Source of the DNA: Callorhinchus milii
Taxonomy: Eukaryota
DNA: 60,000 bases
Direction: 5' to 3'
NCBI RefSeq assembly: GCF_018977255.1
Contig: NW_024704742.1
Span: 41,418,001-41,478,000, forward strand
Below, piece after piece: positions 7,580-58,052 of the stretch; within the stretch, counting starts at the first letter, position 1, and every line of letters starts with the position of its first letter. A model generated the notes under the pieces. The model worked only from the letters and a program-made list of their open reading frames with translations, did no database searches and was not told where the DNA came from. The position numbers and the translations under genes were made by a program.

Positions 7580-8169
7580 GTAATTAATATACATAGTATA
7601 ATATAGCAAAACTAATATAGCTTGTCATGGTATGCAGGGTATCCCTCTGGTAATGTGGTGTCTGGAGTCCATAAAATAAGAACCATAAAATAATGGGTTC
7701 AGAAAAGAAAATGTCCTTCCTTCTCAGATAGTAAGCCTGACAGTCACTGCAGCTGCTCTCCCGAGCGTTTCTAACATTGGAAATACTTGCAAGAATGGTT
7801 GCCAGAATGCCCAGCATCTTGTTCGCATTTGTAGGAAGCTGGAAGTGTACTGAGCCGATGAGGTTACCTGTGGATTAAGTGTGAGATCTTTGAATCTGAT
7901 TGGTTTAGATTGACACGAGGCAGAGAGTGTAACCAGTAGATCATCAAAGGTAGCATCTTGTCAGTTTCCAATATAAACTGAAATGTTTTTAATTTTGTGG
8001 TCTACATGTCAACTTAAGCTAAATGCAGTTAATGGCCATGTGTCTGGAATGGGTCAACAGAACAGGAGTGCCTCATACCTGTCTTTGTCATTTTGTGACT
8101 ATCCATTTTAATGCGAAGCAGAACTTATTAAAACAGAACTATTGTAACTTGCTTTTGTATCTTTTAAAG

Positions 8170-8424
8170 ATTGCACAACTTGATGAGGCCAAGGTGAAGA
8201 TCAGTGCATTGGAGGCAGTATTCGATATTCTGCAGGTATTTGGGATTGAGGCTTTCAAACCCAGAAATGATAAACTGCAAGAAACACCAAGTGAAGAACT
8301 AGAGAATGAAAATGAAAAATCAAAAGCAGAGGAAGGAGTTGAAGAAGAATCAAAAGAACCTGAAGTGGAAACTGATACAGTCAACAGTATTCTCACACTG
8401 CTCACAGGATATTTGGACAGTGAG
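8170..8424 (+). CDS. NCAPG: NCAPG exon (IAQLDEAKVKISALEAVFDILQVFG...acidic loop...LLTGYLDSE)
   Basis: ttttaaag acceptor, gtacat donor, 255 nt; lies within ORF 8023..8460. Confidence 0.92.
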
Positions 8425-8779
8425 GTACATGTTACTGAATGCAAATCAGATTCTGCATAATTGAAAGAAACTGTTCATCTGGCAATTTGTGGGACTTTGT
8501 TATTTGCAAAATAGCTCCTGTCTTTGCTAACTGCATCCCCCCCACCCCCAATGTTATGTACTACACTTCCAAAATGGACCCAAACATTTTTTAAAAAAAT
8601 GGTGGAACTGTAATGCTATTTGTGTATGACTATTTAAAAATAGCAAATTCACATTGGAATTATAACCTGTTAAGGCTACCAGGATAGGAAGAGGGGACAA
8701 ACCTGGAACCTTATAAGCAAATCGTGCTCAACTTCCTTTGTTTGAAGAATTTTTATTTTTTTTTTGAAAATATTTTTGA

Positions 8780-19025: not shown

Positions 19026-21869
19026 CTAGTTATGGAAATAGAACAGAAATTCTGAAAAATGCATATTGTTTGCACGACGATAACATAACATAACAAGACC
19101 CGGATAGGGTGAAGACCTGGAGCATTTGGGATCAGAAACAGTAAAAAATAAACTGAATAATGAGGAAGAATATTGACACTTAATGCATTAGTGAGATATT
19201 ATAAGGATTGTGCACAATTTGGTTCCTGGGCAGTTTCCAAAGCCTCCATAATATCAAGGGGGATAAGTATGGCTCCTGGTTGTAATTCAAAGAACTATGA
19301 GAGGTTCAGGAAGTCTTCAGTCTTCACTTCAAGAAGAAAATAAAAGTTATTCCAAGTTAAACTGAACCATACACCAATTCAGGACTTCAATATAAGTTAC
19401 AGCTGACAGGACAGTGTACAGGTTAGCTGCCCATGACTGTAAACAATGAATAAGAAACCCCATATAAAGATTCTGTTCTGCAGATGATCACATTCACAAT
19501 AGTAACATTTTACCACAGGGCATTTCTAACCAGACAATGTAATCTGGAAACAATGCAACATTTTAAAAATCCTTGAGTTAAATGTCACTGAGGAAGAGCG
19601 CTTGGCAAGACAGGCCAATATTTTGTACTTTGGAGACCATGATGTTATTATGAGTCACTTTTTTCAGGATCTGCAACTAATAATTGCCCGTGAGATTTGC
19701 AACAAAATGGTACAGGTACCATCAGTGTCTACACTTAAAATTATTGGACTTATTTTTTTTCCCCGGAAGGTTCAGACAAGCCCAGCATTTAACTGTCTGA
19801 GGTAGTAGATTTACATCTGCAACAAGAACTGTTTCCATATCAGCACAATGTAAAATATGCACTGCTTTTAATACTTTAAAAAAGTATCAAATCAGCCATT
19901 TATGATACAAATTTATAAATTTTACAACAGAATATGCACATAAAAATGTAAAGTGAATACAATAATTGAAGTGTCCCAAATTCCCCAAAGTATGGACTAC
20001 GAAAATAAGTCATGCAGTCATTCCCCTCTGAAGATAATTATATGTAAAATCTAATGCATCATTATATACTTGATTAGTTGTATTGCATTTGGTGGAAATA
20101 TGAATTTAAGAAAATGACTAAGTAAACAATTAATGCTATTGTGATTAAGTATATGTATTAAAACTAGTAGCAACCTGTGGGAATGTTTGCCTGTTGATAT
20201 TCAACAAATTCTTGCAAAGCAGCAAGCAAGAGCGCTAAAAATTCTGTACAAAAGGTATTAGTGCAACTTCTCAAATTTGCAATGTTGTTCGCATCAGCTT
20301 CAGGTTTTGGCTACAAAGCAGCAAATACAAGAGATATTGCTACATACATTCAACCTGAACCAGTAGGCTGAATATTAAGGCACTAATTCAATTCCAAGTG
20401 CGACAAGATGGCTTTCTTCTTAAAGTTTTTCATGTAGATATGCTATGCCAAGTCTTTGTAGAAAAGAGATATTCTGACAATCCATGGTTAAGGCATGATG
20501 ATTCCATCAACTTGCATTTCCTGTAAAAAAAATTAAAACATTTTGAATTATATGTATATCCTTAAAACTTTCAGTGTCACACATGCCTTTCAATGCTACA
20601 CAATAACTAGAGGATTCTGAAAGCACCATTCACCAGTCTAAATTTCTGTATTTATGAACAAACATGGCAAAAGTTAAATTCCTGAATACAATAACTCCCT
20701 GTCTTACTGGACTACAGGTGCCTGGAACTCAGACCTAGCCAGACAGGGCCTGAAACATTTAAAATATTTCCGTGGGTCTGTGTGTGGACTAGTGCTGGCC
20801 CACTGCTAGCACACCCTCACCTTACCATGCTTGCTGGGTTCTGCAGTACCCAGGGATATCCACTTTGAGTCAGTTTGAATCCAATGAGCACAAAGATAGC
20901 TTATTCGCTATCTTCTGCTCATGGGATTCAAACAATTAAATCCCAGTACATAGAGCCACCACTGAAAAAAGCAGGTAATTACACCTACCTGGAAATTCCG
21001 TCTTGCTGGGCCGGATTCCCCATTGGTCCTGGGACGCTACCCTGAGTGAGGCGCTATATATTTAGTTTCAAGTTTTTAGTATATGATCCCAAGTTGGAAA
21101 GGTCAGTGTATGCAACTTTTAAATCTATTCACAGACATCAACCAATACTAACGTCAAGCCAATCAGCAAACAATCTTTGATCAAACCAATAATGTCTATC
21201 AAAACACAAGATTTATTTGAAATCTATTCAGCAAAAATAGAACGGGACTTTAAAGTTGAACAAAATCATATGATCTAAGTACCTACTGCAAATGTGTAAA
21301 TTTCTTAAAGGGACTGCACAATTTTTTCAGTTTGGATGTTGGCATTAATTTGTACCTGGAGATTGAAAAAGTAAAAAAAAATCTAAAATCAAGTAGTAAT
21401 TTTTGTTCTCATTTGTTAACATACGATTGAAACATTAATTAATGCTCTTAATTCACTGTGGTGAAATAAAAAACAAAGGACCATTCTAACAGTGTTGTAA
21501 AGTTATCCTTTACAATCCTGATCCTGTCCATTCTCATTATGCTATCTTGCCATATCTGAAAATATTGCTCTGGGTTTACTTTTTCAATCTTATTTAGCAT
21601 CTTATACAGTGGACCCCTATTATATTATGATTCATTCATTATAAATTAACAACAACAACAACAAGATTCCATTTATAAAGCGCCTTTCACGTCAGGAGGA
21701 CGTCCCAAGGCGCTATTAAATTCTCTTAATACGATTGGGTGTGGATCCTGACATGGAATTATCAAAAAATCAAAAAGCAGTGTATATGTACGTACTGACA
21801 GTGATTACGTAATTTTAATTTTAATTTTAAAATGCTGGTTGGGATTTTATTCACCCCAAATATAATATA

Positions 21870-22184: not shown

Positions 22185-22522
22185 TCATGTTATAACCAAT
22201 ATCATGTTATAATGGGGTCTCTTCTGTATAACTTTACAAGGTCTCTTGTGAGACGTTTCTGTTCAAGGCTGAAAAGTTCTACTTTCATTCCTCATAGATT
22301 ATCTTGCTAATACTGGGGATCATTTGTATTACTCTCCATTGCACTGAATCAAAGGCCTGGCCCTTAATGCATTACTGTTTAAAATCAAATCATCACTTCT
22401 TTTAATGTCACAATTGTTAAGACCTTGACACAAGACTGCAAAGGACATTTTGGAGGGTGAATTCCAGATCAATTCACCTTCTTCAATGTAAGTTACATAA
22501 ACCTTTAATGGTTTGAGCTTAC

Positions 22523-25500
22523 CTATTTGAAACTTTAAGTGACTGAATGACAATCTTTGTTCCACAGATGATCGTTTTATCCTTTTCACTGCTGCCGCAT
22601 CTCCAGTCACACACATGTGCGCTTTTCGTTTCCCTGCAGTCTTCACAATTTCAGCATTTTCCTTTTGTGAGCTCTCTTCATCTACTGGGTTACTGCTGCT
22701 GCCCAACGACAGCAAGTGGTCACTGCCAACCTGAATAGGTACCGACTGCATTCTAGAAAAGTGCTTAATTTTATCAGATGATGGACTACTCGCCCCATTC
22801 TCATTACTGGATCTTGCTTTGTGCTCCTTCTTCCCTCTTCGTTCACATAAAGTTTGACTTCTGGGGTTGAAGTTGTGTGCTTCGAATGCATCAACAGCTG
22901 AGGGATTTACTTCACTGTATGCATCACTGTTTTCTTCAGTAGACTTCTGAAGATGACTTGAACTTTTAATATCAAATGAGTTATTTCTGGATGGCTGCCA
23001 AGCAGTTGCTACACTATAATTTCTGAAATGGCTCTGATCTAGAGAGTTGATCTTCCTTAGGAACACCCTGCACTCTTTAAAACTCCCAAGTTTCCAGTTA
23101 ACATTTGTTAAAGTGTCTTTTTGCTGCTCTTCCATAGCAAAGCCTCCTTGATCTGTGTTTTCTAGTTTTGTGGTTCTTTTGGATTTATGGTTGGTCATTA
23201 AGCCCATGTCCTGGACACTTGTACAACCAGATACACTAGCTCCTTTGTTATTGACAGAATTAAGTTTGTCTTGGTTTTCATTTTCTTTTTCATTGTTCAT
23301 TAGGACAGGCTCTCGTTCTGATCTAATGGTTTCAATTTTAAGATCAGGTTTTTGATTATTTTTAGTTTCTACAGTTTTTACTGAGTCAGGATTTAGATTT
23401 CTGCATCCTTGATTTTCATTTATTTGTTTCCAAACAGACTTCCACTGCTTGCAATGGACTCTGTGATTATGAGTCAATCCTGTACTTTGAAGTTTACAGG
23501 AAACCACATTGTTATGGTCAATCAAAAGCCTCCTTTTAGCTTTGAGCTTGCTCATTCTATTTGATAGACAAAATTGCCCTTGTGGTCTTATATCAGGTTC
23601 TAGTGCAAATTTTTTAAGGTGCTTTTTCAAATGTTCTGCCTGAGAGCTTGAACAGATGGCAATTTGATCGGCATCTGCTATAACTCCTTTAGCATTGAGA
23701 ACCTCAATAGGGTTCCGGGCATTATCTTTTCTTACAATGGATAAAGAATGTGTTTCTGTTGTTTGCATGAACCATGCCCGAATTTTATCCATATCACAAT
23801 TTCCCTGAAACAGCATTTGGATAGGAGAGATTTGATCCTCGTCATAACAGTCTTCAACTGATGTCCGTTTGGCTACAGTTTCCATTGGATCTGGGGGTCT
23901 TCCTTTGTCAGAACTAATAGTTAGTTCCTCAACATCAACGGGAAGCCAGCCATTATTAATCTTTTCAAATTGCGTATCAAGTTCTTCTAGTAAAGTTTGT
24001 TTGGAAGTGGAGTTATGCCACCACCTGAAAGAAGTGCTCGATATAAAAATGGGATCTGCTGATACTTCAGAAAAACAATTCAGTTCAGGTGCTTCAATCT
24101 TGCTTTCTTGCCCATTACTCCCTGTAGTAATATTTGGCAAGGTATTCTCAGATATCATTTTAATATTTAACTTCCTGTTTTTTGCAAGCTCATTACCTGC
24201 TTTATTTAAAAGCAGTTTCCGTGATTTACGCACCAAAGCACTACTTTGAGAAAATGAGCAGGAGTTTGCAAATGAATGTAGGCAGTGCAGAGATGGCTTT
24301 CTAATTCTAACTGAATGCCTCGAGGGTACGGCAGACTTCACTTTATTCTTTTGGTCATTTACTTTTGACATTGTTTCACAATCATTTTGTACTGTTGCCA
24401 CAGATTCTTTATGTAAATCAGGATCTTTCATCTCTGTATCTTTTGACACATTTTTAATTGGAAACTCTTGGTCTAAAGGAGGTAATATGCTGTTAATGTA
24501 GACTTTTCTTTCCTGAGGTGACACTAGATCAACAGTTACAGAAATACCCGAAATCTTCACTTTTGCAGGACGTCCAGGTTTTCGTTGTCCATTTTTAGAA
24601 ATTTTAATAGTTGTAGGCTTACTATTTGGACCAACTGCATTGCCAGTGTTGTGAAGTGAAAGAGTCTTATTTTTTATGGGTCTAACTAAATCATATCCGC
24701 ATTCACTTTCAGTCTGTGAAGGTGTCAAGCGATCAGTTTTGCTTTCCATTTCCTCTATAGTAGAGCTCTGTGCAAATTCCAAGCTTTCCAGTTGTTTCTC
24801 ACACGTTTGCTTCAAGTCACTTTCATTGATATTAAGTTGTGGAATTGTTACATTTCCATCATTCTCAGACACAAATCTTTTGAATCTTCTTGAACGTCCA
24901 TAGACTACTGTAATCCTAATATTCCGGTTGCAGACATCATCTCTGGAAGGTGGACATGAAAGATTGCAGTTTTCAGCATCTGGAGTTTCAGTTGTACAAT
25001 CAGCAGATTCAGATAACTCAACCTTAGGTTTAGGTGGTCTTCCCTTGGGGCGTTTAATCTGCTTTTCTACTGGAGGACCTAATTTTTTGGGACGACCCGG
25101 CTTTCGTTTTAAAACTAAATCACCCACTTCCTTTGAAACCTGTGTTATTTCCATGATCTGGTCAATAACCTTTTCAGCATCACATGTTAGAAGTGAATTA
25201 TCCAAGTCCTTCGAAACACCAGTTATTTCTACCACCTGGTCATGGTCAATAACTTCTTCAGAATCATGTTTTAGAACGGAATCACCTACGTCCTTTGAAA
25301 CCGTGGTTATTTGCACCTTCTGATGAATAATTTCTTTAGCATCATCTTTTAGAAGTGGATTATCTGTATCCTTTGAAACCTCACTTAATTCCGCCACCTG
25401 GAAATTATTTTTTACAAGACTGCTCGCACATAGAGAACTACTGGAACCCAACCTATCCATTTCAACATCATCATTTACTTCCCCATAGATTGTTTTAGAA

Positions 25501-28182
25501 CTCTCCAAAATACTCTGGAAACATTCAGCAGTATTAACATTTTCAGCAGATGAATGAGAATGATCTTCCTCTGGGGTTTTAATGAGCACTTCTTCAGAAC
25601 TAATTTTTGCAATGCAGCTGCCTGTGTCAAACTTTGTCAAAGTACTTACAGATGTCAGTGTGTATTTTACTCCTTGGTCACTGCTTACTTCTGAGAGAAA
25701 CATAAGCTTAACGGGACTGTTATAACTAATGAAAGAACAATTTTGGCCCAGGTCAGTTTTATTTGTAGAACTCGCAATCCCATGAATTGAACATGCACAA
25801 ACTTTAGAATGCTGACACTTCTGTTCCGATGAAGGATTTGCATTCAGACAATCATTTCCTAATATCAATTGAGAGGGAAATATATGGTTTGTTGGTTTAG
25901 ATTCAGAAATAGTAGTAAGTAATTCCTTTCTTTCTGTGTTCCTCAAAGGTGTACAGCTATCAGTATTTGAAATATTTTCTGAGTCATCCTTGGTACAATC
26001 ACTTAATTGAATAGGCTGCTCTAGGCTATTATGTTCCATAGAACCAATGGAGTCAGTATTTAGTGTTGTAGATGTGTTTTGCTTTTTGTCATCGTATTGA
26101 TCAAGAACTTGGCTTGGTTCTTGTAAAGAATGTAATACAGTTGCCTCAGGTGAGGTAAGTTCACTTGTATATTCTTTGTCATCTGTTAACTTTCCAATGT
26201 TATGATCATCTCTGTTCTTCCGGAGCTCAAAGCCTGCAGAAAATGGTGTATCTGAAATTCCAGTTACTTCACATGCAATGACAATGTCCTGGCCTTCTCT
26301 ATGTGACTCTTGGGTTTTGGAGACATCGGGGCTGCAAATTTCAGAAGCATTGCTTCCAGACTCTACACCAGATCGTTTTGTTTTAATTGATTTTCGTTGG
26401 AAATTTTCTGAAAAGGAGGCAGCATAGAACATTTTTCTAGGCTCAGTAATGTAAATGGAAAATCTTTCCGGAGGGAGAACATTTCTTTTTGCCCTAACAA
26501 TGCTAGGTGTATAATTCATTCCCTCAGAGTTCTGTGTGTCTTCAAATCTCTCACTTTCTGTACAGTCATGCTCAAATATTGAAATCTCAGTCTTCTTCCT
26601 TGGAGTTTCCACATATTTTTCATGAGGTTCAGAGGTGTTTGACTGCTCTGGGTAATCAAAAGAATTACAACTGTCTTCTGATAAATTTGACCATTCTGTT
26701 ATATCTCTAACTTCACATTCTACTCCTTCCCCAGGCGAGAACTTCGAGTCAGCGAAGGAAGCTATTTCACATTGCAAGGGTGGAAAGTTGTTAAAACCGG
26801 TATTCATGCTGGGAATATTTTGTAAATCAGGGTCTATTGAATCTTCAGCAACTTCATCACCAAGAAAGGAATATTCGGCTTCTGGTGAACTTGGATTCTT
26901 TATGAGGCTCTTTGCTGATCTCTTCCCACATTTGTCAGATGTTGACTTCTTCCTTAAAAAGAGCTGATCTAGATTTGCAAGATCTCGTTTTATTTGCACT
27001 GTTTGACGACGAGATGATGGAGAATCTGGAGAGTTATGAAGAGCAATTAGAGTTTCTTGACGTTTCCGGAAACGGGTTTGAATTATTCGGTTTTCCTCGT
27101 GCTGTTTGAGTAATTCCATTAGGCTATAATCACTGACCTTTGCCTCGTGGAGTAAAGCAGTTACAATTTCTCTCAATTTAACACTGTCATTATTTTCCTG
27201 ATAGGAATCAATGTTGGATGGGTTAGTCAGACTTTGACCTTTGTCTGAAGTTTCTATTGATTTCAGTTTTTCATTTATTCGCTCCATTAGCTCTTGAAAT
27301 GAAACAGAATTTTCACCTTTTTCAATATCATTTTCAGACTCAGATGATCTACTATTTTCACCATCGACTTCCTGAAATTCTTCTAGGTGTGCTTTGCTTG
27401 AAGTCTGACTAGACATCAGTGAGCTGCAGTCCCCCTCTTCTTCTGGAGAAAGAGAGGGGGGTTGGGTGATATTACATTCAATGCTATTAGCATCAAAGGC
27501 TGAAATGTACGTATTCATTCCAGTTTCAGACCCGTCTGCTCTCACTGGTGACAAAGGTGGAGGGGATGGACTTCGTGCTCTGCTGTAATCTTTGATATTG
27601 TATACTACTGTAGAAACATCTGCTGCTTCCGTATCAGGAGTAGGGATCTCTTCAACTACAAAGTCACTGGAGGTTTGAATTGTAGCTCTTTCATCATTTA
27701 TACATCCAGGAAAACCTTCAAAAGATCCAGGGTAAACTTGGTATAGACTGCTCTTGTGACACTCTTTGCAAACTCCATTACTTATTATCGTAAAACATCC
27801 AAGATACCTTTTTTTGCATGATAAACAATGTGGATCTTTTATACAACTGCAGTGTGGCATCTGTGGAAAAGAAATGGATTGTACAGTTTGCAAGGAGCTT
27901 TTATGCCATAGGAATCCATTAGAGCTGCAGAATTCCTCATATGCCTTGTTTTCGAAGAAAGAAACTGAGGAATTTTTCCACTGTGAATGTCTTTGATGTC
28001 TGCATTGCACATCAGAAATACCTTTTTCTTGCAGTAGACACTTTAGCATTGTGGTAAGAAGTCTCTGATGGTTAGGGCACAGGGTAGACACAATTTCATT
28101 CAATGCAGTTAGTTTGTTGTTTATGTAACTAGTTTCTCGAGTAGAGTTGAACATTGCCTCTGTATCAGCTCCCAGCTCAGAA
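22523..28182 (-). CDS. LCORL: LCORL giant alternative exon, PALI2-type (AT-hooks; PIP/DUF4553 PRC2-interacting region), 1886 full codons
   Basis: Lies within the stop-free 1956-aa ORF 22329..28199. Acceptor tttttttttaacag at 28183, phase 2, matching the donor of exon 49207; donor ATAG|gtaag at 22522. Motifs KPGRPKK, KGRPPK, KPGRPAK, FRWW, SPIQMLFQ, WFMQTTET, HLKKHLKKF. Confidence 0.9.
25107..25400 (-). repeat. Coding tandem repeat, about 3.7 units of 78-84 bp, inside the PALI2 exon
   Basis: Anchor cct(t/c)gaaac-type motif at 25130, 25208, 25292 and 25370 (spacing 78/84/78). Peptide unit approximately QxxEITxVSKDxxDxxLKxDAEEVID. Confidence 0.85.
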
Positions 28183-29454
28183 CTGTTAAAAAAAAACATG
28201 CTAAAGTAAGAAGATTAAAATAATCCAAACAATGAAATAATCAAAATATATCCTAAGAATCAAAAACAAGCAAAAACTGATAAGGTAAAAATATGGTTGC
28301 TTGCACACTCTTTTGATATAATATGAACACTTTTACAAATTTTTCTTTAAAGGTATATTAACTTACAAAAATAATACTCAAAAAGCATAAAAGATACAGT
28401 ATTGAGTGAACAGTCTCCTTTTGAGTTGAAATTTCTTTGATTCTATTTCCAAATCTTGATTGATATGGAAAGCATAACAAGGAAAACCAACATTAATAAT
28501 ACTTGCATTTGATACAGCACCTTATCACGTTGTTGAGACTTCTCAAATTGCTTCTCAGGATATGCTGTAAAGTGGGTTGACTATGTATTTTTGTGAGGTA
28601 AACACAGCAGCCAATTGTGCACAGAAACATCACACAAACAGCCATGGAGTGAGATCTCTATTTACAACAATATGAGTTTGGAGGAAAAATTTGGTATGGC
28701 CAAATTACATTTAACAAATGGCATCAAACTCCAGAAATTCAAATCAGTTAATCCAGGATTATATATAAAACATTTTTTATGTTGAATTAACATCTTTTGC
28801 TACGTACTTTAAGTGACTAATGAACTTTTACATTTGTTTCAATAAGCTCTTTGAGAAGTCTCAACAACGTGATAAGGCGCTATATCAAATACAAGGATTA
28901 TTATTATATTATAAAACAAAAATGCACAAACATACATTACTTGCCATATGGCCTTCACAAACTGTAACTAAAATGCTCATACTTAATAATCTCATCAGAT
29001 CACCCCGAACAGCAATTTACATTAATCAATTACATTTCAATTTTATGAGAATGTATAATGGTAATCCAAGGCACTCACCTCCTTTTGAGTATGTTGCCTT
29101 GAAACTTTATCCTTTGCATTAGAACTGCAAGGTATTAACCAAGTAGTTCTGCAGCATGGAAGGGGGTTAAAGAAAACACTGTTAAAACTGAAATGCCTTA
29201 GAATACCATTACAATTTATTTGAACTATATTTTCTCATATTTTGGATGATAATCAATTGGTAGGTTGGCTCTAAATGTTGTGCCACTATCAGATTAATTT
29301 TGTAGATATTTGATGATGACGCATGGTTACTTGGAAACATTGATATCCATGGTGTGCGAATGCATTTTCAGAATTAAACATTTTCTGTTGGTCAGGAGTG
29401 ACATAATAAATGCAGTTCTACTTTACACGAATGACAACTGTGTTTGATCAGGGC

Positions 29455-36283: not shown

Positions 36284-37334
36284 CTACATGGACTTGTTGC
36301 TGCTTTTGGAGCTGCTCGTCCCTGAATTTGTCATATTGAACAGCCCAGTGTCCGATAATCTGAGCTTCTTCTTCGGTGGTGTCTTCAATGTCCCAGATCG
36401 TTCTTTTACTTTGTATTCTAAAGTGCTGTGAGGTACTCCATAAATTCCTTGTGCTTTAGAGACACTCATTTTCCCACTCATTACCATCCCAATAGCCTCT
36501 TCCAAAATGTCATGGTCATACTGCCGATAACGCCCACGCTTCTTTCTTGGTTGTTTACTGTCTTTCAGACTAATGCGGTCATGACCATCATTTTCAGATG
36601 TTACGTCAATGGTTCCATTATTTACGTTAAGACATAGTGGAGAAATGTCTCCATGCAGGAGGAAAGAATCAACACTAGAATGAGTCAAAGGTAAAGAACA
36701 TTCAATTTTACTCTGCTTAGGCAGGATAGTTTTGAGTTTCTGTAGCGCTGATCCTTCCAGCAGCGAAGAGGTTTTTGATACCTGGTACATAACATCGAAA
36801 AGCCCACAGCTGTCAGGCTGGGGTTTGGGCACAGAGCTTGCTCGTACCTGAGGAATTTTTAACTGAACAGCAGGACTACTGACACTTTCAATATGAAGGT
36901 TGACATCTTTCTCTTTCAGCTGTGCAACCATCCTTTGCAGGGTTAACTGGTGGAGGTAACTGGAAGCAGTGGGAAACTTTAGCTCTGAAGGTCCCAACTG
37001 ACTGAGTTTTCCCTGTTCATTACATTGGTTGGAACTTCGTTCTGCCTGAGCTCTTGCCCACAATGCAACTTTTTGCAGTAGAGCATGAGGTTCCCCAAAA
37101 GTCTTAGAAAAACAACTCTCAGTGGCATCTCGCATCTTGTTTTTCAATGGTGCTGCTCCTCCTGATAAGGCTTCCAAATTGAGAAGTAAAGTTTGGTGAG
37201 GTATTCCATATAGCATGGCTGCTTTGTTCATGTCCAATGCTCCTGACTGAATGTCTTTCAAGGCTTTTGAAAGCAAACCGTCTGCAAATTCAGCACTTCG
37301 TTTCACAAGCTCCTCAGTGTTTTTCTGTGGTCTC
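36284..37334 (-). CDS. LCORL: LCORL canonical terminal exon with pipsqueak-type HTH domains ([34 protein letters not shown]...[13 protein letters not shown]...[15 protein letters not shown]...)
   Basis: ORF 36284..37384. Acceptor ccatcctag at 37335, phase 2. Both HTH_psq motifs closely match recalled LCORL/LCOR; adjacent to NCAPG as in other vertebrates. Confidence 0.96.
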
Positions 37335-49206: not shown

Positions 49207-49303
49207 CCTGATAATTTTACAGTGGTTGGTGTAGGACTAGGTCCGGTTGATATTGTGGAAATTACACTATTCTTCTTTGTAGATAGATCAAGCACTCCAT
49301 CTG
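49207..49303 (-). CDS. LCORL: LCORL shared exon (ADGVLDLSTKKNSVISTISTGPSPTPTTVKLSG)
   Basis: tattag/cag tandem acceptor, gtaagt donor at 49206, 97 nt, phase 1/2. DGVLDLSTKK is a conserved LCOR/LCORL motif. Confidence 0.93.
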
Positions 49304-55554: not shown

Positions 55555-55809
55555 CTTGTTGAACATTTTTCTGTTGATTTTTATTCACAGTGAGGTCTAA
55601 TGGTCCATCCTGTTCCTGCTGAAAGGAGTTCTGGGTTTGGTTTGGAGGAGGATCATTCGGAACCAAAACTGGTGCAATGGATAATTCAGTCTGGTTTTCT
55701 TGAATGCGACTATTTCTTGATACATATTCAATTGCAAACTGGCGAATCATTCTTTTCATTATTTCCTGAGCAACTAGAGGAATGTTGCGATCACAGTTCT
55801 GAGGAAGGT
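55555..55809 (-). CDS. LCORL: LCORL shared exon ([28 protein letters not shown]...[12 protein letters not shown]...QQ)
   Basis: ttttcag acceptor at 55810, gtaact donor at 55554, 255 nt, phase 1/1. Contains MIRQFAIEY and the CtBP-binding PLDLT motif. Confidence 0.95.
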
Positions 55810-56945: not shown

Positions 56946-58052
56946 ATAAGAACATAAGAATAAGAAGCAGGAATAGGCCATTCGGCCCCTCGAGCCTGTG
57001 CCCCGCCATTCGATAAGATCATGGCTGATCTTCAGACCTAACTCTAATTACCTGCCCTATCCCCATATCCCCTAATCCCTGTTTTTTAAAAATCTATCAG
57101 TCTCAGCCTTGAAGATGTTCAAGGACTGAGCATCTACAGCCTTCTGGGGTCGTGAATTCCATAAATTCACTACCCTCTGAGTGAAGAAATGTTTCCTCAA
57201 CTCTGTTCTAAAAGACTGACCCTTAATTTTAAGACTGTGACCCCTGGTTATAGATTCTCCTACCAGGGGAAACAGACCCTCAGTGGCTGCTTTATCAGCC
57301 CTTTAAGAATCTTACATGTTTCAATAAGATCTCCCCTAATTCTTCTGTACTCTAGAGAATACAGCCCTAGTTTATTCAGCCTATCCTCATAGGTCAGTCC
57401 CCTCATCCCAGGAACTAACCGAGTGAATCTACGCTGCACCCCCTCTAGGGCAAGTATGTCCTTTTTTAAATAAGGACACCAAAACTGCACACAATACTCC
57501 AGGTGCGGTCTCACCAAAGCCCTATACAGTTGCAGTAAGACTTCCCTACTCTTGTACTCTAAACCTTTTGCAATGAACGCTAACATGCCGTTCGCCTTCT
57601 TAGTTGCTTGCTGCACCTGCAAACTAACTTTTTGAGACTGGTGTACAAGGACACCCAAATCCCTCTGAACACTAATACTATCTAATCTCTCCCCCTCTAG
57701 AAAATAACCTTTTTTTCTATTTTTTCTACCTAGGTGAATAACTTCACACTTCCCCACATTAAATTCCATCTGCCACCTACTCGCTTACTCCCCTAGCGTA
57801 TCTATATCCCATTGCAATCTTTTTGCATCATCCTCAGAGCTTACTCTCCCACCTAGTTTAGTGTCATCTGCGAATTTAGATATGTTACATTCAATGTCCT
57901 CATCTAGATCATTGATATAAATTGTAAATAGCTGAGGCCCAAGCACTGATCTTTATGGCAATCCACTAGTCACATCCTGCCAATTCGAGAATGACCTGTT
58001 TATCCCTACTCTCTATTTTCTACCCGTTAGCCACTCTTCAATCCACGCTATG
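56946..58052 (-). mobile_element. 5'-truncated CR1-clade LINE (RT C-terminus plus 3' UTR)
   Basis: SVLGP, SKFADDTKL, MEFNVGKCEVIHLG and LVRPHLEYCVQFW. 3' end GGCCGAATGGCCT stem followed by TTCTTATG-type repeats. Confidence 0.93.

Follow-up and report, generated by a model that had tools for sequence, protein, structure and literature searches.

LCORL is a known body-size gene, and Conway et al. 2018 reportedly described PALI2 as its long isoform. On the LCORL strand of a window of 60,000 nucleotides from Callorhinchus milii, a long open frame is found that RefSeq sets apart from this gene (LOC103175811), which raises the question of whether this frame belongs to LCORL as its PALI2 exon, forms a gene of its own, or is a PALI1 exon or decaying remnant. 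Positions are given throughout in window coordinates; all LCORL exons, and the features within them, lie on the minus strand. The frame, phases, splice signals, domains, orthology, and synteny of the exon were established in the present analysis. With high confidence, we regard 28182..22523 as the PALI2-specific giant exon of a single LCORL gene, alternative to the HTH exon.

LCORL exons in the window

LCORL exons 5' of position 55809 fall outside the window. The shared exon 55555..55809 (255 nt), which carries a PLDLT motif, was found by tblastn with shark long isoforms (70-76% identity), and its splice sites were read; weak tblastn matches near 30500-30360 (E 0.05-6) were taken as chance. 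The last shared exon, 49207..49303 (97 nt), carries a VLDLS motif and ends in a phase-2 donor, AGG/gtaagt. Its acceptor is a tandem NAGNAG (49303/49300), with the models P0259 (QQADG) and P0260 (QQDG) taking one site each. Both PLDLT and VLDLS are presumably CtBP motifs. This reading of the N-terminal motifs agrees with section 10 of PMC8864842.

In the short isoform (590 aa), the coding part of the last exon (36284..37334) matches HTH_psq in two stretches (E 4e-26), and it directly follows exon 49207 in the database model P0259. From the HTH stop to the giant exon, AATAAA occurs six times. The minus-strand stop-to-stop frame of the giant exon, 28214..22329, comprises 1,961 codons. Within it, an acceptor (tttttttttaacag/T, first base 28182) and a donor (AAATAG/gtaagc, last base 22523) delimit 5,660 nt, that is, one base, 1,886 codons, and one further base. 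Thus, the stop-free frame of 1,886 codons noticed in the sequence-only reading was confirmed, as was its distance of about 8 kb from the HTH stop (8.1 kb from the end of that stop, at 36284, to the acceptor of the giant exon). The remaining two minus-strand frames contain 113 and 229 stops, and across 200 shuffled versions of its sequence the longest stop-free run reached 159 codons (mean 89). With the donor at 22523 unused, the frame would continue for 64 codons, to 22329.

Exon 49303..49207 stops two bases into a codon and is in frame with both the HTH exon (KLSG-RPQK) and the giant exon (KLSG-SELG). The phase-2 acceptor claimed earlier for both was therefore found, and either exon can follow 49207..49303 in frame. 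In the long isoform, the giant exon is followed by a tiny terminal exon that begins downstream at 20520. Its coding part, 20507..20520 (14 nt, G-N-A-S-stop), was the sole match of a pattern scan and has the acceptor ttttttttacag; the G-N-A-S C-terminus is matched by three of the four same-species database models (P0003, P0124, and P0125). Further downstream, an open frame on the plus strand (8023..8457) contains an NCAPG-type exon (Cnd3, Pfam PF12719, E 1.8e-08). Lying tail-to-tail with LCORL on the opposite strand, it corresponds to the NCAPG-LCORL neighbourhood.

Predicted join of the giant exon to LCORL

The giant exon product is 47-57% identical to 11 elasmobranch proteins across 100% of the query, and 10 of these are named lcorl or LCORL-like. 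The chondrichthyan origin proposed for the sequence was correct. These long isoforms (e.g., XP_041055124.1 of Carcharodon carcharias), already annotated as lcorl, have the same entry junction: VLDLS...KLSG reads straight into the giant exon in all 11 retrieved shark and ray models. Short and long models part at this same point in three of three same-species pairs (great white, zebra shark, and coelacanth). Among the 120 long homologs listed, the HTH motif was found in none and VLDLS in 102. Of 115 representative matches, P0247 and P0249, which are repeat-rich and lack DUF4553, were dropped. The gene models behind this evidence are predictions. Given the matching phase and the orthologous models, we infer that C. 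milii, too, splices 49207 to 28182.

All four same-species database models of the giant exon lack the upstream join. Two of the database entries, LOC103175811 (XP_007887222.2) and UniProt A0A4W3II25, are identical in sequence to the giant exon but unjoined to the upstream LCORL exons, so the exon was indeed split off as an uncharacterised gene, as had been anticipated. In the RefSeq model, translation begins at an internal Met and 306 nt are spliced out in frame, and the UniProt model has its start placed in the intron. As the main form, the 306-nt intron (28021..27716) was rejected: its acceptor is weak, AAGGT stands at both ends, the removed residues are conserved in sharks, and an internal gap is found there in none of 12 great white and basking shark isoforms.

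These entries would fit an independent gene under a promoter of its own, starting as in LOC103175811 or at an ATG at 28199, which we consider very improbable. The four same-species models all begin inside or just before the giant exon but disagree about the start, using three different Met. Although the open frame extends 11 codons 5' of the acceptor, the ATG at 28199 sits within the polypyrimidine tract (MFFFN is encoded by atgtttttttttaacag), and the acceptor itself is strong and of the correct phase. Great white and basking shark have one model each that begins at an early-exon Met (P0135 and P0138); against this, the shared exons are joined to the giant exon in 11 of 11 elasmobranch representatives. 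A lungfish model (P0140) is split in the same way, and the split therefore looks like a recurring annotation habit.

Domains and conservation of the PALI2 product

In the giant exon product, whose own residue numbering is used here, Pfam PF15090 (DUF4553) matches aa 1382-1813 (22743..24038; E 4.3e-34, 118.7 bits, cut-off 27), and the first 150 residues of the match align with the PRC2-interacting region (PIP/PIR). The predicted DUF4553/PIP similarity was thus found. By alignment, AT-hooks 1 and 2 (KRKPGRPKK and KRPKGRPPK; Gly at aa 1029 and 1047) lie at 25023..25109 and AT-hook 3 (RKPGRPAK; Gly at aa 1203) at 24555..24587; the GRP cores of the first two, and the third, are kept in all 22 aligned long isoforms. 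Three AT-hooks are described as a mark of PALI2 in section 10 of PMC8864842. Directly before AT-hook 1 lies an in-frame tandem repeat of about four units of 26-28 residues (25105..25401; Tandem Repeats Finder and alignment), about 73 residues of which have no counterpart in 12 other rows of the alignment.

A K-K-F effector motif (K1524-F1525; 23607..23615) is present, and K-K-F is found in 120 of the 120 long homologs among the matches listed. The PALI1 motif is given as K1240-K1241-F1242 (PMC8319299). Because of the motif and its position (1550-1622 in five amniote models), K1524 is the probable equivalent of PALI1 K1241 and PALI2 K1558.

DUF4553 is also present in PALI1 (C10orf12), the long isoform of LCOR, and the Pfam model scores PALI1-type proteins higher (303 and 617 bits vs 119). 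PALI1 has its gene logic, PIP, and K-K-F in common with the giant exon and occurs in catshark too (XP_038629331.1). Two further alternatives for the giant exon, that it is itself this LCOR exon or a remnant (non-coding or in decay), are nevertheless refuted and have a negligible probability. Identity to catshark lcor is just 29% over 330 columns, vs 47-57% to shark lcorl over the whole length, and the AT-hooks and the NCAPG neighbour are those of LCORL. Block HMMs found only PIP (5/5 tested) and, weakly, the first helix (3/5) of 12 PALI2 blocks in PALI1-type proteins, the other 10 being absent. A careful, unrooted 30-row tree of PIP sets the giant exon and LCORL-named proteins apart from a clade of lcor (PALI1) plus lamprey (support 96/94); a quick 116-row tree was not used for conclusions. 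The frame is intact, and conservation is block-wise. The identification as the PALI2 exon of LCORL thus holds up on DUF4553, shark lcorl identity, AT-hooks, and the NCAPG-type neighbour.

Compared with known PALI2, the C. milii gene has the same shared N-terminus with PLDLT and VLDLS, the same replacement of the HTH exon by a giant exon, and the same three AT-hooks, DUF4553/PIP, K-F effector motif, and NCAPG neighbour. Its long isoform is longer (predicted 2,131 aa vs 1,544-1,963 in the listed full or near-full bony-vertebrate models), partly because of the tandem repeat. Elasmobranch long isoforms lack this expansion. Their C-terminus is similar, 7 of the 11 ending in G-N-S-S/T, which resembles the G-N-A-S of C. 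milii.

It is not in the PRC2-binding part that the exon is best conserved. The best-conserved stretch is a predicted helical block at aa 288-408 (26958..27320; alignment, block HMMs, and a single-sequence model), for which the model gives four helices at a mean pLDDT of 68. Over aa 351-400, identity is 96% with elasmobranchs (11 compared) and 76% with bony vertebrates (10 compared), vs 87% and 62% for the best PIP window. By HMM, the block is shared with a lamprey protein and absent from all five PALI1-type proteins tested. PDB sequence searches gave no match for the whole exon product, one for PIP (E 0.28), and five for the helical block (E 0.13 or worse), none of them meaningful. The top score of an Atlas search with aa 285-412 (0.82) was inside the chance range, and none of 289 matches of a fold search with the single-sequence model reached E <= 0.001.

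Predicted isoform switch, PRC2, and relatives

After exon 49303..49207, use of the near acceptor at 37334 would end the transcript in the HTH exon and yield the 590-aa DNA-binding repressor. Alternatively, the HTH exon would be skipped, 28182 taken, and 22523 spliced to 20520, giving the predicted 2,131-aa PALI2; the choice is probably tied to polyadenylation after the HTH exon. By analogy with mammalian work, the long protein would retain the two CtBP motifs, bind AT-rich DNA through its three AT-hooks, dock on PRC2 through DUF4553/PIP, and offer the methylatable K1524 (residue 1765 of the full protein) to the EED cage. From PMC8319299, we infer that PALI2 here may likewise bind PRC2 and be methylated by it.

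Mammalian evidence on endogenous PALI2 as a PRC2 partner is mixed, and in vivo support is weak even in mouse. A PALI2-K1558me3 peptide is reported to bind EED and stimulate PRC2 in vitro, while endogenous PALI2 is seldom recovered in PRC2 pull-downs, as stated in the same source (PMC8319299). In mouse, PIP loss is reported to lower H3K27me3 and raise weight (PMC12448305). K1558R mice are described as viable, and the authors of that preprint state that they are aware of nothing that directly shows a functional interaction of endogenous PALI2 with PRC2 in cells (bioRxiv 10.1101/2025.03.13.642955). Thus, for the sequence-only claim of a PRC2.1 subunit, DUF4553/PIP was found, but the role itself is less settled than was implied.

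Another possible, though less probable, reading is that the long isoform is made but acts mainly as a CtBP/AT-hook chromatin adaptor through aa 288-408, PIP being secondary or restraining PRC2. This reading bears on mechanism alone and leaves the proposed gene structure intact. The higher conservation of aa 351-400, the retention of the helical block in lamprey, the viable K1558R mice, and JARID2/PALI1 effector mimicry, reported to counteract Polycomb spreading in vivo (bioRxiv 10.1101/2025.03.13.642955), would all fit it. The constancy of K-K-F in the listed homologs and the reduced H3K27me3 of PIP-loss mice speak against it, and the block has no assigned partner in Pfam, Atlas, PDB, or fold searches.

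The proposed isoform switch was also said to be already present in this lineage. The gene structure supports this, but the switch is not new at the database level, since 11 elasmobranch long models are joined and a lamprey model is long too. Sea lamprey LOC116940649 (XP_032806646.1/647.1, "uncharacterized") has an LCOR-type N-terminus, PLDLS/VLDLS, HLKKF, and 4 of the 12 PALI2 blocks, PIP and the helical one among them. It lacks a GRP AT-hook and forms a long branch of unsure placement in the 30-row unrooted tree. This protein suggests that the long PALI form reaches back to jawless fish and that the chimaera lineage is not its oldest holder.

Separately, six elasmobranch species have a short DUF4553 protein without the effector lysine, which apparently stems from the 3' third of the PALI2 exon. 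Taken jointly, and as a rather improbable speculation, the PALI exon would predate jawed vertebrates, and the shark and ray copy would be a conserved separate gene that starts at the PRC2-docking region, with K-K-F lost and a short downstream motif multiplied. Such a PIP-only competitor could occupy PRC2.1 without EED engagement, as a lineage-specific Polycomb brake or tuner. The helical block, located before the dog truncation point, may be what large-body truncated alleles leave.

The gene model is corrected in that LOC103175811 belongs to LCORL, and a chimaera ortholog is supplied for mapping which parts of this little-studied body-size protein are conserved; the gain is modest because the isoform is already annotated in other cartilaginous fishes. 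If the side results hold, the PALI exon would already have been present in the last ancestor that lampreys share with jawed vertebrates, and aa 288-408 would be marked out as a candidate functional module. The short effector-less PIP protein, if real, would be a natural probe of PRC2 docking without allosteric mimicry.

Structure of the giant exon and of LCORL in the window

On the minus strand, positions 28214 to 22329 form the longest reading frame of the window, with 1,961 codons from stop to stop. Within it, a strong acceptor at 28182 and a donor at 22523 delimit the PALI2-specific giant exon of LCORL (5,660 nt, 1,886 whole codons). The other two minus-strand frames of this exon contain 113 and 229 stops, and stop-free runs in its shuffled versions (n = 200) did not exceed 159 codons. 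Ending in phase 2, the shared exon 49303..49207 (-) is in frame alike with the giant exon and with the HTH exon (37334..36284, -), the last exon of the short isoform, whose stop at 36284 lies 8.1 kb upstream of the giant exon. Re-measurement of frame, acceptor and phases returned the values of a sequence-only reading, which had reported 1,886 stop-free codons, phase 2 and a position about 8 kb past the HTH stop. The exon flagged there is genuine and was correctly interpreted.

Shark long isoforms mapped back to the window identified two shared exons, carrying PLDLT (55809..55555, -) and VLDLS (49303..49207, -), and pass from the latter to the giant exon. A NAGNAG acceptor at 49300-49303 adds or omits one Ala ahead of VLDLS; both forms are modelled in Callorhinchus milii and great white shark. 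The sole candidate for the last exon in a pattern scan, at 20520 (-), adds G-N-A-S-stop, the ending of three of the four C. milii database models. Counting the 241 residues that the long protein would share with the short C. milii model (P0259), its predicted length is 2,131 aa. The interval from the HTH stop to the giant acceptor contains six AATAAA hexamers, in agreement with a putative choice between the HTH and giant exons as alternative last exons.

The frame remains open for 64 codons beyond the donor (22329-22522). Read-through ends may exist, since some basking shark models stop a few residues beyond the same donor point (GKIKLLEDLLIL). The RefSeq model excises a 306-nt in-frame GT-AG piece (27716-28021) with AAGGT at either end, which is either an artefact of the model or an exitron of minor use. 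Elsewhere, Pfam identified an NCAPG-type exon (Cnd3; 8023-8457, +), one of 3 matching frames among 47 scanned. A LINE-type reverse transcriptase gene fragment is located at 1439-2864 (-; RVT_1, E 7.6e-32 for 2004-2864), and 57260-57784 (-) is presumably a LINE-like reverse transcriptase fragment. One repeat, whose many copies reach about 300 bases in length, is scattered across the introns.

Identity and annotation of the long isoform

As the sequence-only reading had expected, the giant exon product matches Pfam DUF4553 (E 4.3e-34, aa 1382-1813); the HTH exon matches HTH_psq. Of 7,642 candidates in a homolog search with the product, 397 proteins matched, and the best 120 of these were listed. 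The best match, 100% identical, is "uncharacterized protein LOC103175811 [Callorhinchus milii]", while the next 11 are from sharks and rays, with 47-57% identity across the whole query, 10 of them being named lcorl or LCORL-like. The foreseen split of this exon into an uncharacterized gene has therefore occurred in C. milii, where the short isoform bears the name LCORL. Translation begins at an internal Met in the RefSeq model and, in UniProt A0A4W3II25, at an ATG within the polypyrimidine tract. In Heterodontus francisci, a clear PALI2 ortholog (P0005) carries the database name "serine-rich adhesin for platelets".

In all 11 elasmobranch representatives, which are predicted gene models, VLDLS...KLSG continues into the giant exon. 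Among the listed 120 of 397 matches, VLDLS was found in 102 and the HTH motif in none. Short and long models diverge at the identical residue in all three pairs compared (great white shark, zebra shark, and coelacanth). On these gene models, splicing of the shared exon to the giant exon is predicted in C. milii.

A search with the PRC2-interacting region (PIP) of DUF4553 yielded 115 representatives among 1.84 billion proteins. A careful 30-row tree separates an lcor-type clade (100/98) and a lamprey protein from the giant exon and every LCORL-named row (96/94), placing the exon on the PALI2 side without fixing its exact place there. Five PALI1-type proteins (LCOR long isoform) compared with 12 PALI2 block profiles matched PIP in 5/5 and the first helix weakly in 3/5, and no other block. 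By sequence comparison, the giant exon is of the PALI2 type, not PALI1; catshark has PALI1 as well.

Conserved blocks and possible effector-motif losses

Alignment of the exon product with 11 elasmobranch proteins and 10 bony-vertebrate proteins chosen from the listed 120 revealed conserved blocks within a Ser/Glu/Lys-rich background. Three GRP AT-hooks, described as a PALI2 hallmark in the accessible part of PMC8864842, are present in 22/22 rows. The PIP region ends in HLKKF (K1524-F1525), and this motif occurs in 120/120 of the best matches listed (of 397). According to the available portion of PMC8319299, methylated PALI1 K1241 (with F1242) and PALI2 K1558 bind EED. Judging from the motif and from positions 1550-1622 in five amniote models, K1524 would be the equivalent of K1558.

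Conservation peaks outside PIP, at aa 351-400, where identity is 96% with elasmobranchs and 76% with bony vertebrates; this window belongs to block aa 288-408 (26958-27320). The block is predicted to be helical with modest confidence, and it matched nothing in Pfam, PDB, the atlas or the fold search. It is kept in lamprey and was not detected in the five PALI1-type proteins tested. An in-frame tandem repeat (25105-25401; 26-28-residue unit) adds about 73 residues ahead of AT-hook 1; this expansion is absent in the sharks, rays and bony vertebrates of the displayed alignment.

Six database-unnamed DUF4553 proteins of 125-666 aa (P0150, P0238, P0250, P0258, P0234, P0212), five of them outliers among the 115 PIP representatives and one added by further search, come from Heptranchias, Heterodontus, Scyliorhinus torazame, Chiloscyllium, Rhincodon, and Hemitrygon. 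Similar to 24104-22944, they group together on the PALI2 side of the tree with support of 100/100. They begin with MAT/MTT-P at PIP, a start that is internal in Heptranchias. All six lack K-K-F, the effector motif with the methylatable lysine, and the downstream ECRV block has 1-3 copies in 5/5 tested. In Heterodontus, the short-protein record is on a 65-Mb contig versus a 288-Mb contig for lcorl. These predicted proteins are candidate effector-less PRC2 binders; since the further search scored 8,000 candidates of 322-1,026 residues, it does not show stand-alone status or absence from chimaeras. In an unnamed PALI2-type clade (P0156, P0157, P0186, P0189, P0197, P0235, P0243), K-K-F at the PIP end is absent by eye and the AT-hook by pattern count, which may reflect loss of the effector motif in one lineage.

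Function and age of the long form

The structure, phases, motifs and orthology of the giant exon are established here. Splicing to 28182 would replace the Pipsqueak-type DNA-binding tail by one with AT-hooks and a PRC2-docking region, and both products would retain the CtBP motifs of the shared exons. In favour of this, the accessible text of PMC12448305 reports higher weight and lower H3K27me3 in PIP-loss mice, and excerpts of the literature describe recurrent truncations in eight domestic species (PMC12448305; PMC11121065; PMC6445083). None of these results ties the exon to fish body size. Against a simple activator role, PRC2 pull-downs seldom contain PALI2 (PMC8319299, in part) and K1558R mice are viable (bioRxiv 10.1101/2025.03.13.642955, in part); in the available text of the latter, the authors know of no direct evidence for endogenous PALI2 functioning with PRC2.

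The chondrichthyan long isoform is already publicly annotated in 11 species and perhaps not discussed in the literature searched. The accessible part of PMC8864842 describes PALI1/2 as vertebrate-specific, with zebrafish as an early holder. Literature searched on the evolution of LCOR/PRC2 accessory proteins yielded no mention of lamprey, in one listing among 15 of 23 papers. Names were looked up for 10 of the 115 PIP representatives (outliers or clade markers); no invertebrate is among the nine named, and the approximately 100 without look-up all fall within two clades of a quick tree. The unnamed sea lamprey model LOC116940649 (P0210/P0251) has an LCOR-type N-terminus, 4 of 12 PALI2 blocks, DUF4553, and HLKKF, i.e., the whole PALI architecture, yet without AT-hooks. 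Therefore, as far as this gene model indicates, the long form probably predates jawed vertebrates.
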